Sequence record: PZ256263.1
Reading direction: 5' to 3' (one strand)
Origin: a phage
DNA: 64,000 nucleotides
In this document: positions 15,557 to 25,135 of the stretch, in pieces
Layout: each line of letters starts with the position of its first letter
Numbering within the stretch: the first letter of the stretch is position 1
The notes under the pieces: generated by a model
Told to the model about the DNA's origin: nothing
The model's input: only the letters and a program-made list of their open reading frames with translations
The model's database searches: none
Position numbers and translations under genes: made by a program

Positions 15557-16750
15557 ATGTTTCCAGTAACATTAGAAGATACTGAAGGTAATGTTTTAAC
15601 GGTCAACCCTCCTTGTTATGGGTTCCTTCAGCTTCGCAACTATAACGGTGGCGTTGATGAAGATGATGACGAAGATGAATACTTCGACCCTAACATGTAT
15701 GAGGCAACTCATGGGTGGAATATGCACGTTCGAGTGTGGCATGAAGAAGCTAACGTTCGTAGTGCTGATGGGGAAGAGTTCCTGTTGAGCCGAGAGATGG
15801 ATATGTGTAAAATCAAGCATATCTGGAACTCCGGAACTCACATGAAGATGTTAGGTTTTAGACGTTGGCGTGATGAAAAACCTGTATCCGCAGCTTTAGG
15901 TTGGGGTGCTATTGATTACGAAGGCGAGCTTAAAAACAACATTGAACGTTGGAATGACAAAAACCCTGAACATCGAACCACACCTCGTGCTGTACTGGAA
16001 GCTATGGAAGCATTTGTGGACAAAGATCGTCCCTCCTGTTTACGCTGGCACGATAAAGGTTTTATGGGGGTAGCAACTGAAAATGTTCCTGCTGATCGTT
16101 GTCTATTCTATTTGATGTTAGATCGAACCTTCTATTGTGAAGATGAAGAGAGTCAAGTTGAAACCTTCCTCCACAAATGGTTGGTTGAAGGCTGGACAAT
16201 CCTTCAGTCTTATGTTTACTCACGAATGGTTAGCACTTACACTAACCTCTTGGGTGAAACGAAAGCAACTCTGGTTGGTAATGATTGGGATGCTTGTATC
16301 TTCCCAGCGTCACTATTTACAGTCGGCATGGCTGATAAATACGCTGAAGCATTTCAAGTGCCTTGGCGTCAACAGTCGTATAGAGACGGGTGTGGTCACT
16401 TCCGTGATGAAGACTTTAAGTGGATTCATTATGAGAACGATGAAACAGCAGAATTGCGAGTTAACAACTCAATGTTCTTGCCAGTGATGCACCCCGATCT
16501 AGTAAAAGATGGGTCAGAGATACTTAAAGGTGATAATCTTTTGGTTAACTTTACCCGTCGCGTGTCTAAAAATGAGAGAACAGCTAACAGGCTAATCTAC
16601 GGCATTCGTGCCGAGGCTAAAGACCTGTTCAACATCTACAACATTATTCAGCGATTTAGTAGTGGAACTCTGGACCAAAGTTCGGAGTATTCAGTGATTC
16701 CATCCTCTGAGTGGGATGGTATTATGAGCGGATTATTTTTAGGAAAATAA
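15557..16750 (+). CDS. Hypothetical protein (397 aa), first gene of the amidoligase module
   Basis: Acidic DEDDDEDE run and conserved Cys/His/Trp; no family recognised by eye; contiguous with downstream module genes. Confidence 0.55.
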   Translation: MFPVTLEDTEGNVLTVNPPCYGFLQLRNYNGGVDEDDDEDEYFDPNMYEATHGWNMHVRVWHEEANVRSADGEEFLLSREMDMCKIKHIWNSGTHMKMLGFRRWRDEKPVSAALGWGAIDYEGELKNNIERWNDKNPEHRTTPRAVLEAMEAFVDKDRPSCLRWHDKGFMGVATENVPADRCLFYLMLDRTFYCEDEESQVETFLHKWLVEGWTILQSYVYSRMVSTYTNLLGETKATLVGNDWDACIFPASLFTVGMADKYAEAFQVPWRQQSYRDGCGHFRDEDFKWIHYENDETAELRVNNSMFLPVMHPDLVKDGSEILKGDNLLVNFTRRVSKNERTANRLIYGIRAEAKDLFNIYNIIQRFSSGTLDQSSEYSVIPSSEWDGIMSGLFLGK

Positions 16751-16760
16751 AAGGTTAGTT

Positions 16761-17732
16761 ATGTCAATCTCCACAACGATCGTACCTCAGAATCTTCAAC
16801 AAGATTTAGGGGAACAGAAGTTCTTAGGTCGTGGGTGCTTCGGTATTCACAACTACATGCAAGGCCAGTGTGTAAATGACATTAATGGTGAAGTTATCAC
16901 GGAAGAAGGGCGCTATCGTCGCTTCAACCGCGATATCAACTTGCAACTGGAGATGTTGAATTACTGGACTCACTCTTTTCATGGTCATGTTGCATCCGAT
17001 ATTGAAAAGAACTTGATTGAAACAGCGGACATTATGAACTCTATGTCTTGCTATCGTGATGTATTTACAATCACTTCAGCGAACAGTGTTGCTGTCAATC
17101 TTCGTGAGCATCCAGCAGATCAGATCTTCACAGGACTTATGCTCTTCCGTAGCATTCTGGAAGGGCAGTATCGTGGAATGGATTTCCTAGCAGAAGGAAT
17201 TGAAGACAGGGAAGAGTGGCTGAAGCGTAAACGCATCGGAATCGCTCTAGTGTTAGCTGGGTTAGGTCGTGACTTCTTCGGTGGGTGGTCTCAACGAGGA
17301 ATAGCCAATGGGAATAGCGAGAGCACCTCTATTGTTATTAATAACAATATGTCAGCAGCAGCATTCCTTCCTTTGGTTGTAGACTCTGATGAATACACGA
17401 AACAAGTATGGGTTCAAAATCCCTTCGGTGTTGGTGACAATGAGAATGGTTATGTTCGTAACCATAACCCAGAGGCCTTACGAAGATTTGCTCGTGCTAA
17501 AGATCAAGACCCAACTGAGTATGCAACAATGTCAGAGTGGTTAAGACTCTGGTCCATCTGTTATGGTCACAAACGTGAAGCAATAGACGACAAGTTGGGA
17601 AACATTACAGTACAAAACTTTACAGCCCGACTGATTCAAAGAACTGGAGCAGATTCCGGTCTTACTCTTGAAGAAGTTGGTAACACAATCTCATCTCTCT
17701 TTTCTGAACTAGTGGAGTATTACAATGACTAA
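16761..17732 (+). CDS. Hypothetical protein (323 aa), amidoligase module
   Basis: Tight spacing with neighbours; no recognisable motif. Confidence 0.55.
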   Translation: MSISTTIVPQNLQQDLGEQKFLGRGCFGIHNYMQGQCVNDINGEVITEEGRYRRFNRDINLQLEMLNYWTHSFHGHVASDIEKNLIETADIMNSMSCYRDVFTITSANSVAVNLREHPADQIFTGLMLFRSILEGQYRGMDFLAEGIEDREEWLKRKRIGIALVLAGLGRDFFGGWSQRGIANGNSESTSIVINNNMSAAAFLPLVVDSDEYTKQVWVQNPFGVGDNENGYVRNHNPEALRRFARAKDQDPTEYATMSEWLRLWSICYGHKREAIDDKLGNITVQNFTARLIQRTGADSGLTLEEVGNTISSLFSELVEYYND

Positions 17733-18531
17733 GCGCAAATTCCTCATCGGCTCTGACCCTGAAATGTTCGTTCGTACTAACAACGGTATCATCACCTCTG
17801 TGGCTGGTCTGTTAGGCTGTTCTAAGGACGATAAGATCACTCTGGCTAAGGATGTTCGTCTTCAAGAGGACAACGTACTGGCTGAGTTTGATATTGACCC
17901 ACAGAGCGGCTTTGAAGCGTTTAACGATAACATGCAACGTGGTATCGATCTCACCAACAATGTCCTGAACAAACTGGACATGGAAACAGCTCCGGGTGTT
18001 AGCTCTCACATCTTCACTGAAGAAGAGATGAAGACTTTCAATGAATCAGCGTTCATCTTCGGATGTACTCCTGATTTCAACGCTTTCACTGGTCAGAAGA
18101 ATCCATCCCCGACTTCTCAGAACAAGGGGCTTCGTACTGCCGGTGGTCACGTACATCTTGGCGTAGTTGGTGCTTTGGATATCACCCTGCAAACTCAGAT
18201 GATGCTGGGTGTGCTGTGTGACTATTTCCTGTCCCTCCCAGCAGTTATTATGGATAAAGATACTCGCCGTAAAGAACTCTACGGTAAAGCGTCTGCAATC
18301 CGTTATAAAGACTATGGTATTGAATATCGTTCACTGTCTAACTTCTGGATTAGTGATCGTGAAAACCGTAAGTTTGTTTATGATCAGGTTGACAAAGTTG
18401 TTCAGCAGTGTGATATGTCCACTCTGATGGCATTGCACTCTCGCCTTCCGATTGAGAAGCTTCATGAAATCATTAACGGCAACAACGTTAAAGAAGCGGA
18501 CCAGCAGATCAAACTCCTTCAGGTAGCATAA
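17725..18531 (+). CDS. Putative GS-like (GCS2/Amidoligase_2-type) amidoligase, divergent (268 aa)
   Basis: N-terminal FLIGSDPEMFV and later GGHVHLGV resemble the GxExE and xHVHxG motifs of carboxylate-amine ligases. Confidence 0.45.
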   Translation: MTKRKFLIGSDPEMFVRTNNGIITSVAGLLGCSKDDKITLAKDVRLQEDNVLAEFDIDPQSGFEAFNDNMQRGIDLTNNVLNKLDMETAPGVSSHIFTEEEMKTFNESAFIFGCTPDFNAFTGQKNPSPTSQNKGLRTAGGHVHLGVVGALDITLQTQMMLGVLCDYFLSLPAVIMDKDTRRKELYGKASAIRYKDYGIEYRSLSNFWISDRENRKFVYDQVDKVVQQCDMSTLMALHSRLPIEKLHEIINGNNVKEADQQIKLLQVA

Positions 18532-18540
18532 GAGGTTATC

Positions 18541-24269: not shown

Positions 24270-24451
24270 ATAAGTATAAAGTTCTGTTTAAAGATACCAA
24301 TGCAGCTGGCGAAATGCGAGCAATGGATATTGACGCTGATTACTTCAACTCTTATAACAATAAGATAGAGTTCTGTCAGGATAAAGAAGTTGTTGCTTCT
24401 TTTAATGACGAGGTAATCTGTGGTGTAATTAAAATCTTTATCACAGAGTAA
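24266..24451 (+). CDS. Hypothetical protein (61 aa)
   Basis: GTGA overlap with the upstream gene. Confidence 0.4.
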   Translation: MNKYKVLFKDTNAAGEMRAMDIDADYFNSYNNKIEFCQDKEVVASFNDEVICGVIKIFITE

Positions 24452-24504
24452 TCTGCTTTAGCCTCTTCGAAAGAGGAGGCTAGTTCGGATAAACTGGAGG
24501 TTTT

Positions 24505-24714
24505 ATGAAACATGAAAGATTAAGTAAAGCCATTGATTCTGTATGGGATGCTGGGTGTGTTATCTACCGAGAGCATCACTCATACGGACAAACCAGAATA
24601 CTAATTCTTAATCCTTTCTGCGAGCAGTTGGGGTTAGAAGTGTTTGTAACAGGAGCCACTGATCAACAGTGCGCTTACATTGAAAACATCATGAAAGATT
24701 GGAAAGGTATTTAA
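24505..24714 (+). CDS. Hypothetical protein (69 aa)
   Basis: GGAGG RBS; preceded by a small hairpin. Confidence 0.45.
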   Translation: MKHERLSKAIDSVWDAGCVIYREHHSYGQTRILILNPFCEQLGLEVFVTGATDQQCAYIENIMKDWKGI

Positions 24715-24715
24715 A

Positions 24716-25135
24716 ATGTCAGAAGTAATTTACGTAGCAACTTATGGTTCTCTTCGTCGTGGTCAAGCTAACTATCTAGTTAATGACCGAGCTGGTGCTA
24801 AGTCAATTGGTGAAGGTTGGACTGAAGACAACTTCGATCTGTTCCGTTATGGTGGTTCCTACTTCCCAAGCATCTCTCTCGCACACAGCAATAACAATAA
24901 GCCTGTTCGTGTAGAAGTGTTTGCTACTGACAAAGCAGGTCTGGAAGGTCCATACGATCGTCTGGAAGGTTACAATAAACGTAGCCCTGAAGATAGCTTC
25001 TATCAACGCACCCAGATTGCCGTTAAGCTGGACTCAGGTGAAACTGTTATCGCTTGGATTTATCACATTGACGAAGAACAAGATGTTCTGGTTGAATCTG
25101 GCGACTGGTCAGAGTATCTGAAAAGTGAATCTTGA
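24716..25135 (+). CDS. Gamma-glutamyl cyclotransferase-like (AIG2/GGACT/BtrG fold) protein, 139 aa
   Basis: N-terminal VIYVATYGSLRRGQANY matches the YGSL/YGTL motif of GGCT-like enzymes (by eye). Confidence 0.55.
   Translation: MSEVIYVATYGSLRRGQANYLVNDRAGAKSIGEGWTEDNFDLFRYGGSYFPSISLAHSNNNKPVRVEVFATDKAGLEGPYDRLEGYNKRSPEDSFYQRTQIAVKLDSGETVIAWIYHIDEEQDVLVESGDWSEYLKSES

Follow-up and report, generated by a model that had tools for sequence, protein, structure and literature searches.

A phiEco32/LUZ24-type cassette of amide-bond enzymes in a Kuravirus genome and its possible gamma-glutamyl product

Genes of the cassette and their products

The window analyzed here is a stretch of 64,000 nucleotides of phage DNA (sequence record PZ256263.1), and its positions 15557-25135 hold a cassette of genes for enzymes that act on amide bonds, the phiEco32/LUZ24-type amidoligase operon. 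The source phage is a Kuravirus (phiEco32-like). The region matches 99 phage records, 66 of which have a single aligned stretch covering at least 80% of it, and the closest nucleotide match is PQ819470 (97.9%). Among the 30 best-matching records listed, which are Escherichia and Shigella phages of Kuravirus and its relatives (Gordonclarkvirinae), identity is 94-98%. The gene order is that of phiEco32 phi32_88 to phi32_77, and the amidoligase called AL below is 97% identical to phi32_84. Given the many near-identical records, the likeness of AL to phi32_84 and the shared gene order, the sequence comes from a well-sampled phage group and is no orphan.

The nine open reading frames (ORFs) previously listed for the region all lie on the + strand and are spaced, or overlap, by no more than 20 nt, except for one gap of 79 nt and one of 53 nt, the co-directional and tightly packed arrangement that a first-pass annotation of the sequence had described. 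The main genes are given below in 5' to 3' order with the shorthand used throughout.

15557-16750, + strand: U1, 397 aa, phrog_13063, found only in Gordonclarkvirinae-like phages
16761-17732, + strand: U2, 323 aa, conserved cassette member with no recognized fold
17725-18531, + strand: L2, COOH-NH2 ligase type 2, a carboxylate-amine ligase resembling glutamine synthetase (GS) and GCS, PF14395, phrog_3815
18541-19158, + strand: U3, 205 aa, core partner of no known fold family, between L2 and AL
19155-20258, + strand: AL, GS-like ligase of the Amidoligase_2 family, PF12224, with GxExExE, HxH and ExR motifs, phrog_7469
20338-22368, + strand: GATase, class-II (Ntn, Cys1) glutamine amidotransferase domain at about residues 1-275, ATT start
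22812-24014, + strand: ATP-grasp, RimK-like ligase at about residues 1-275, then an acidic linker and a lineage-specific C-terminal domain of about 80 aa (phrog_20552)
24716-25135, + strand: GGCT, gamma-glutamyl(amine) cyclotransferase of the GGACT/AIG2 type

The first-pass annotation had proposed five enzyme types acting on amide bonds, and all of these family calls were upheld by Pfam, profile searches, NCBIfam and PHROGs. PHROGs assigned every cassette protein to a phage family with a full-length match. NCBIfam gave matches only for the GATase and ATP-grasp proteins, far under the cut-offs, and PADLOC returned no defense-system match for the ten proteins tested. Searches of L2, AL, U1, U2 and U3 against the PDB, by sequence and by profile, returned nothing, and the three sizeable ORFs left as unknowns in the first-pass annotation (15557-16750, 16761-17732 and 18541-19158, our U1, U2 and U3) likewise had no match in Pfam, NCBIfam, PADLOC or the PDB. 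No transmembrane segment was detected in any cassette protein, and the N-termini lack an obvious signal peptide.

The two proposed GS-like ligases fall into different Pfam families. L2 matched PF14395, COOH-NH2_lig, described as 'Phage phiEco32-like COOH.NH2 ligase-type 2' (E 2e-8, 34.1 bits, cut-off 25), as well as phrog_3815 (E 3e-118), whereas AL matched PF12224, Amidoligase_2 (E 4e-8, 33.8 bits, cut-off 22), and carries the GVGIELELEG and CSTHVHMD motifs noted earlier. Acidic-strand, HxH and ExR motifs are conserved in both proteins. In L2 the residues D11, E13, Q47, D49, E54, C114, R137, H142, H144, R182, R193, K195, E200, R202 and N206 were invariant in 76 of 76 unique homologues. In AL the motif residues E33, S52, E58, H95, H97, R130, E186 and R188 were kept in 80 of 80 unique homologues, E31, E35 and E119 in 79, and D50 in 78.

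The protein encoded at 20338-22368 was the predicted fusion of an Ntn amidotransferase to Cys-rich zinc ribbons. It matched GATase_6 in Pfam (E 1e-14), and its family profile aligned with the PurF and GlmS glutaminase domains in the PDB from Cys1 onward (E 4e-13). The catalytic cysteine (C2 of the translated ORF) was present in 82 of 82 homologues, R29, G30, H84, R86, G91, N111, G112 and D129 in 81 and T89 in 79; R29, R86, T89, N111, G112 and D129, which PurF/GlmS-type domains conserve as well, are presumably the oxyanion-hole and glutamine-binding positions. The domain (about residues 1-275) is followed by a low-complexity linker, a family-specific middle region and, in the C-terminal half, three zinc-ribbon motifs of the CxxC type. 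Pfam, the family profile and NCBIfam found no recognizable synthase domain, and the C-terminal 400 aa are family-specific, with the zinc ribbons. Residues of about 290-676 form a lineage-variable extension in which a Ser/Tyr/Asn-rich linker precedes up to three ribbons. Assignment as GlmS, PurF or AsnB was rejected, all NCBIfam scores being far under the curated cut-offs. For GlmS the scores were 35.8 bits against 418 (TIGR01135) and 43 bits against 381 (NF001484), and SIS isomerase domains are absent. The GlmS product name found in many phage records is thus an over-annotation.

The codon at 20338 is ATT, and the first ATG, GTG or TTG does not occur before 20677. We nevertheless regard the ATT, from the sequence, as the correct GATase start, because the catalytic Cys codon comes right behind it, AGGTGG stands 8 nt ahead of it, and a protein begun there lines up with the Met-Cys N-terminus of every homologue. 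Among 90 GATase homologues the codon before the cysteine is ATG in 76, TTG in 2 and ATT in 11, the last being all 8 Gordonclarkvirinae-type loci plus 3 unrelated marine contigs. The ATT-start region was also seen in loci L010 (7170-7191), L011 (7162-7183), L031, L061 and L085. The recurrence of ATT in unrelated lineages suggests repeated selection for weak initiation. The original phiEco32 record annotates the gene from the ATT, whereas those of phage Paul, EP335 and SU10 (listed as 63.8 kDa) use an internal Met and therefore lose the catalytic domain. Since the gene begins at ATT, GATase is truncated in many records. Two small features lie just upstream.

20266-20286, + strand: hairpin of 8 bp in the AL-GATase spacer, with its nucleotides kept even in Nieuwekanaalvirus EP335
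20305-20334, + strand: mini-ORF of nine codons (MKGFTLQVD, then TAG) in the GATase frame, ending 3 nt before the ATT

The mini-ORF contains the Shine-Dalgarno sequence AGGTGG (20324-20329), and a 22-nt motif that spans this sequence, the TAG, the ATT and the Cys codon is identical in 9 Gordonclarkvirinae-type loci. Coupling of mini-ORF termination to reinitiation at GATase is possible, and readthrough of the TAG to give GATase a PurF-like propeptide is less likely. We also considered the hairpin and mini-ORF as a structured regulatory RNA but make no such claim, as the fold of the whole region was not significant (z = -0.8).

The ATP-grasp protein gave single-sequence Pfam matches below the cut-offs, and the family call was borne out by a profile built from eight diverse homologues, which matched RimK-type alpha-L-glutamate ligases in the PDB (E 9e-8 to 1e-6). 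K85, E157, R159, K173, D229, E241 and N243 were found in 77 of 77 homologues, and the conserved Lys, Glu and Asn/Asp by which the superfamily handles ATP and Mg thus appear to be present in 22812-24014. The protein is neither RimK nor MptN by the curated NCBIfam models, its scores being far under the cut-offs (rimK_fam 26.8 against 143.4 bits, PRK10446 20.6 against 331), so that the RimK-type product names of many records are over-annotations. Residues of about 276-400 are a lineage-variable extension composed of an acidic Glu/Pro-rich linker and then the domain of about 80 aa; the corresponding Vibrio phage Vp_R1 protein is 750 aa long, with a much longer tail.

The expected GGCT-like protein at 24716-25135 matched Pfam GGACT (E 3e-17, 63.8 bits, cut-off 22.8) and keeps Y10, G11 and L13 of the YGSL motif and E84 at the catalytic-Glu position in 49 of 49 homologues. 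As catalytic and ligand-binding positions are near-invariant across 49-82 unique homologues each, all five cassette enzymes appear to be active.

U2 has several conserved features (an N-terminal MS[VI]S[FT], C-[FY]-G, PADR and Y-x-R) and is homologous to a family encoded directly 5' of L2 in 31 other loci (hhalign 96.7% probability, E 4e-10). Its structure model, with a predicted TM-score (pTM) of 0.78, had no convincing PDB match, its best BFVD matches were uncharacterized proteins from cassette-bearing phages, and a Pfam scan of 19 U2-family members gave noise only. U1 is probably a distant paralogue of U2, judging from the hhalign comparison of the two families (56% probability, E 1e-4) and the common motifs PADR..L[FM]L.R and G[HY]xR. 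It has 18 homologues, none of which (0/18) carries a Pfam domain.

Conservation of the cassette and alternation of GGCT with Peptidase_C26

AL relatives occur in 303 phage records, and an IMG/VR scan seeded with the L2 alignment found 422 contigs that encode an L2 relative. The order L2-U3-AL-GATase-ATP-grasp is kept in nine annotated phages of at least six lineages and in 80 IMG/VR contigs. When the 89 fetched loci with L2 were searched with iterated hidden Markov models, AL was present in 89, GATase in 89, ATP-grasp in 84, U3 in 82, GGCT in 56 and the primase-helicase in 42, and the absences mostly coincide with visibly truncated loci. The annotated regions inspected were those of Salmonella 7-11, a PaP3-like Bruynoghevirus, Aeromonas LAh_8, Vibrio Vp_R1, Pseudomonas PA11, Xanthomonas DES1 and Vibrio 1.208.B. 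Most of these have the same ordered block; that of DES1 is rearranged and that of LAh_8 is broken off by the end of the record. The same five enzyme families recur in phiEco32, 7-11, PaP3/LUZ24-like phages, PA11 and marine podoviruses. The first-pass annotation had named neighborhood conservation as one check of its proposal, and this holds for related and distant phages. With the same genes syntenic in about 90 independent phage loci, their clustering is far beyond chance.

Among 100,044 reference species a pattern-limited search found only 26 loci. Nearly all were contigs of metagenome-assembled genomes, of phage size or smaller, and two were scaffolds of about 1 kb from one isolate assembly. 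Most of the contigs long enough to show neighbors had further cassette genes, and several had the primase-helicase gene. On this pattern-limited search the cassette appears to be restricted to phages.

U3 always lies between the two ligases. From its position and its presence in 82 of the 89 loci, we interpret U3 as a non-enzymatic, obligatory core partner of the cassette enzymes. U3 was not seen fused to another domain, nor were any two cassette proteins seen fused to each other, in 91 loci or in 64 U3 representative clusters. A role for U3 as a covalent carrier like LysW is not supported, since none of its Lys, Glu or Cys residues was found to be invariant and its C-terminus is not conserved.

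The cassettes that lack GGCT have another gene directly 5' of L2, which encodes a Pfam Peptidase_C26 protein of class-I GATase fold with the Cys-His-Glu triad of the phage family intact. Such loci include L006, L031, L035, L036, L047, L049 and L051, and C26 is found in about 40% of cassette lineages. Peptidase_C26 includes gamma-glutamyl hydrolases such as PuuD, and the activity that the two unrelated families, GGCT and C26, have in common is cleavage of gamma-glutamyl-amine bonds. Of 55 L2 clusters made at 80% identity, 29 had GGCT only, 22 had C26 only, two had both and two had neither. The last two are 7-11-like loci, and in 7-11 itself the GGCT gene is located some 11 kb downstream of L2, farther than the flank retrieved for those loci. 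The U2 family occurs in 19 GGCT-type clusters and in none of the 22 C26 clusters. This pattern suggests non-orthologous displacement by apparently interchangeable enzymes, and gamma-glutamyl removal is therefore probably a required step. The near-exclusive alternation also supports the gamma-glutamyl add-and-remove logic that had been proposed from the pairing of ATP-grasp and GGCT-like enzymes.

We consider it likely, at a probability of roughly 60%, that this amide-bond set makes a small metabolite, either peptide-like or masked by a gamma-glutamyl group, or else modifies a cytoplasmic precursor, for host takeover. The enzymes would be soluble and cytoplasmic and would be co-transcribed within the early/middle gene region. 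From the chemistry of their families, L2, AL and ATP-grasp would each form one ATP-dependent amide bond on a cytoplasmic acceptor that has an amine or a carboxylate, and at least one of the up to three bonds would be a gamma-glutamyl linkage. GATase would hydrolyze glutamine or a glutamine-like gamma-glutamyl amide, and the ammonia would most likely pass to a GS-like ligase (L2 or AL) that amidates a carboxylate; a less likely role for GATase would be that of an EgtC-like gamma-glutamyl amidohydrolase. In the final or editing step the gamma-glutamyl group would be taken off as 5-oxoproline (by GGCT, as here) or as glutamate (by C26, in other lineages) and the product unmasked. U3 could serve as a non-catalytic adaptor or scaffold through its basic loop, and U2, together with U1, would be an extra family that accompanies the cyclotransferase-type cassettes. 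Scans for sigma70-type and gp36-type (TAATGTATA) promoters and for terminators gave no internal signal above chance in the cluster. In phage SU10 the corresponding genes lie in the early block, and mass spectrometry detected the ATP-grasp, GATase and YtfP-like cyclotransferase proteins and a 23-kDa protein of the size of U3 (PMC4281155).

Several points weigh against a gamma-glutamyl-masked metabolite or precursor as the product. Literature searches found no biochemical or genetic study of the cassette and no reported substrate or product. The association in the GGCT/C26 pattern (Fisher p = 5e-11) was calculated with kinship among the clusters ignored, and C26 could instead supply ammonia, since C26 enzymes are also class-I glutaminases. 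The comparison of L2 with AL by hhalign did not recover a relation between the two ligases (1.5% probability, the alignments being too shallow), and their shallow family profiles found no solved relative in the PDB. As there is neither a solved relative nor an L2-AL link, the GS-like nature of both ligases rests on Pfam families and motifs. Finally, the constant site of the cassette beside replication genes would also be expected of a nucleotide- or DNA-directed pathway.

Candidate acceptors and neighboring genes

The nearest solved relatives of the ATP-grasp protein, RimK and other alpha-L-glutamate ligases, act on the C-termini of proteins and cofactors, and this raises the question of a protein acceptor. 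In such a scheme ATP-grasp and the amidoligases would attach glutamate or another amino acid to a protein of the host or the phage, for instance ribosomal protein S6, an RNA polymerase subunit or U3 itself, GATase and the cyclotransferase would trim or reverse the tag, and U3 would be the adaptor. The predicted structure of U3 is consistent with such a role, as its small beta-barrel domains are KOW/Tudor/eL27-like and it has a conserved, exposed basic loop (R-x-P-x-R-Q-x-[KR]-[KR]-G, residues 103-112, predicted disordered). GGACT enzymes, moreover, cleave epsilon-(gamma-glutamyl)-lysine. However, no acceptor is evident, and we think protein tagging rather unlikely.

The next-ranked PDB matches of the ATP-grasp profile were D-Ala-D-Ala ligases and cyanophycin synthetase. 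The former bear on a hypothesis of peptidoglycan modification that later phage genome papers reportedly trace to Iyer 2009. By this hypothesis the ligases would build or alter the gamma-D-glutamyl, amidated or D-Ala-type linkages of the cytoplasmic UDP-MurNAc-peptide, and the changed wall would exclude superinfecting phages or tune lysis. It is given in PMC10580990, in PMC5498523, which calls the operon a peptidoglycan modification cassette and lists RIO-1, phiEco32, 7-11, PA11, tf, MR299-2, LUZ24, PaP3 and CW02 as carriers, and in PMC11945000 (2025), which uses the same label. The folds do parallel both Ddl and the glutamine-dependent amidation of stem peptides, and early expression is consistent with an exclusion role. 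However, the best ATP-grasp matches are RimK-type glutamate ligases and not Ddl, and with no transmembrane segment detected the enzymes could act only on cytoplasmic precursors. In about 115 loci the cassette was not linked to any Mur-ligase, transpeptidase or other gene of the cell wall, a few cassette contigs are binned with archaea or with bacteria of the candidate phyla radiation (binning that is unreliable), and no experiment supports the hypothesis. We judge it unlikely.

The position of the cassette brings in a third type of acceptor. In the PaP3-like phage, PA11 and 1.208.B the block is directly 5' of the primase-helicase gene, and in most lineages it directly precedes the primase-helicase, exonuclease and polymerase genes. 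In the window the first of these is

25355-27145, + strand: primase-helicase, T7 gp4-like, with the cassette directly 5' of it in most lineages

GATase and ATP-grasp ligases are workhorses of purine biosynthesis, and the cassette might attach an amide-linked moiety, glutamyl or amidated, to replicating phage DNA or to a nucleotide precursor, to be unmasked by the cyclotransferase or C26. Such a pathway would explain both the primase-helicase adjacency and the resistance of Gordonclarkvirinae to restriction, and its chemistry would be without precedent among the known routes of phage DNA modification. We know of no report of modified DNA in the cassette-bearing LUZ24/PaP3-like phages. The restriction-modification resistance of Gordonclarkvirinae is marked (PMC11990801), but restriction profiling served to map the terminal repeats of phiEco32, which means that at least some enzymes cut the DNA (PMC9965538). 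No DNA- or nucleotide-binding domain was recognized in the cassette proteins, and no Pfam or PHROGs match to the hypermodification families (5-hmdU/5-hmdC kinase, aGPT-Pplase, DpdA/QueC types) was found among these proteins, the rest of the window not being scanned. Vertical inheritance of the early region can account for the adjacency, and the site beside the replication genes may reflect such shared ancestry. As the basis of a proposed DNA modification that would explain the strong resistance, the authors of the BASEL study favor a nucleotidyltransferase and a dCTP deaminase, and the nucleotidyltransferase is present only in Kuravirus-type loci. We therefore regard covalent DNA modification by the cassette as less likely than a masked metabolite or precursor, and a nucleotide- or DNA-directed pathway altogether as very improbable.

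The nucleotidyltransferase-like ORF of 456 aa lies at 27641-29011 of the window, after the primase-helicase and exonuclease genes, and was found in 7 of 91 loci, all of the Kuravirus type. The dCTP deaminase gene, placed by correspondence with the PQ819470 annotation, is at about 29012-29545.

Three small genes are interspersed among those of the enzymes.

22371-22604, + strand: DUF7195 protein, a small accessory member (Pfam E 5e-17)
22585-22809, + strand: ORF of 74 aa, phrog_13464, only in Gordonclarkvirinae
24021-24269, + strand: gp79 homologue, identified through the phage Paul annotation, between the ATP-grasp and GGCT genes

The DUF7195 gene lies between GATase and ATP-grasp in 26 of 91 loci. 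The gp79 homologue is confined to 11 Gordonclarkvirinae-type loci and is not part of the conserved cassette; phiEco32 gp79 has been studied experimentally and inhibits sigma70 transcription while stimulating the phage sigma factor gp36 (PMC8948821, PMC12276001). On the 5' side of the cassette there are five mutually paralogous small ORFs of 73-84 aa (11882-12103, 13119-13373, 13370-13615, 13618-13866 and 14554-14796), which share MK..(n)TV.L.TL..G..F...VNL.TG.L. and form a family of early proteins that is both dispersed and in tandem. A tRNA-Arg(TCT) gene is located at 10998-11073 according to the phage Paul annotation.

Comparison with known systems

The enzyme folds of the cassette are those of the gamma-glutamyl cycle and glutathione metabolism (GshA, GshB, GGT and GGCT/ChaC), namely a GS/GCS-like gamma-glutamyl ligase, an ATP-grasp enzyme, an Ntn-type hydrolase acting on gamma-glutamyl or glutamine amides, and a cyclotransferase that releases 5-oxoproline. 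However, the phage proteins are not orthologues of the cycle enzymes (no NCBIfam equivalog match), the cassette has two GS-like ligases, its Ntn enzyme is a class-II GATase rather than GGT, and U3 and U2 have no counterpart in the cycle.

A parallel in logic is given by pathways in which a ligase gamma-glutamylates an amine and the group is later taken off by a GGCT-like enzyme, a hydrolase of the C26 type or an amidohydrolase resembling class-II GATases. These include the Puu putrescine pathway (the GS-like ligase PuuA and PuuD, a Peptidase_C26), butirosin synthesis (BtrJ/BtrG) and ergothioneine synthesis (EgtA/EgtC). The phage cassettes likewise pair GS-like ligases with GGCT or Peptidase_C26, and NCBIfam detects a weak similarity of the phage GATase to EgtC. 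In contrast to these pathways, no oxidase, dehydrogenase, carrier protein or sulfur-transfer enzyme is linked to the phage cassette, and the phage GATase is closer to the PurF and GlmS glutaminase domains than to EgtC/YafJ. With GlmS itself it has only the N-terminal class-II glutaminase domain in common.

RimK and the LysX/ArgX-LysW systems contain the best solved relatives of the ATP-grasp protein (7qyr, 7qys, 5zct and 4iwx, and also ArgX, 3vpb), and PHROGs labels its family 'ribosomal protein S6 glutaminyl transferase'. Unlike those systems, the phage cassette encodes no acceptor that resembles S6 or LysW and ends in a conserved acidic C-terminus.

The system to which the cassette belongs is the phiEco32/LUZ24-type phage amidoligase operon, since PF14395, the linked Amidoligase_2, GATase, ATP-grasp and GGCT genes and their co-conservation across lineages were all found. 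The operon is said to have been described by Iyer, Abhiman, Burroughs and Aravind in 2009 and by Hardies et al. in 2013, and it was first predicted about fifteen years ago. The statement in the first-pass annotation that such neighborhoods had been noted in phages, without biochemistry, was correct; PF14395 takes its name from phiEco32, and the operon, termed gamma-glutamyl or 'peptidoglycan modification' in papers that cite Iyer 2009 and Hardies 2013, is described in several later publications, among them PMC4819975, which leaves its function still to be explored, and PMC10580990 (2023), in which the functions of the cassette 'remain to be explored'. The cassette is thus already known and widely annotated and is no discovery in itself. 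Hundreds of virulent phages, with hosts that include E. coli, Salmonella, Pseudomonas, Vibrio, Aeromonas and marine bacteria, devote five to eight genes to these conserved and apparently active enzymes, and solving the cassette would reveal a new phage-made metabolite or modification relevant to the takeover of the host. Genetics has become practical with the Kuraviruses now available that are able to plate on E. coli K-12 (BASEL Bas86-94). What the present comparison adds to the description of the operon in later citing papers is the core status of U3 and U2, the alternation of the apparently interchangeable GGCT and Peptidase_C26, and the ATT start of the GATase gene; the U3 partnership, the alternation and the ATT start leave a smaller range of hypotheses and put right a frequent mistake in annotation.

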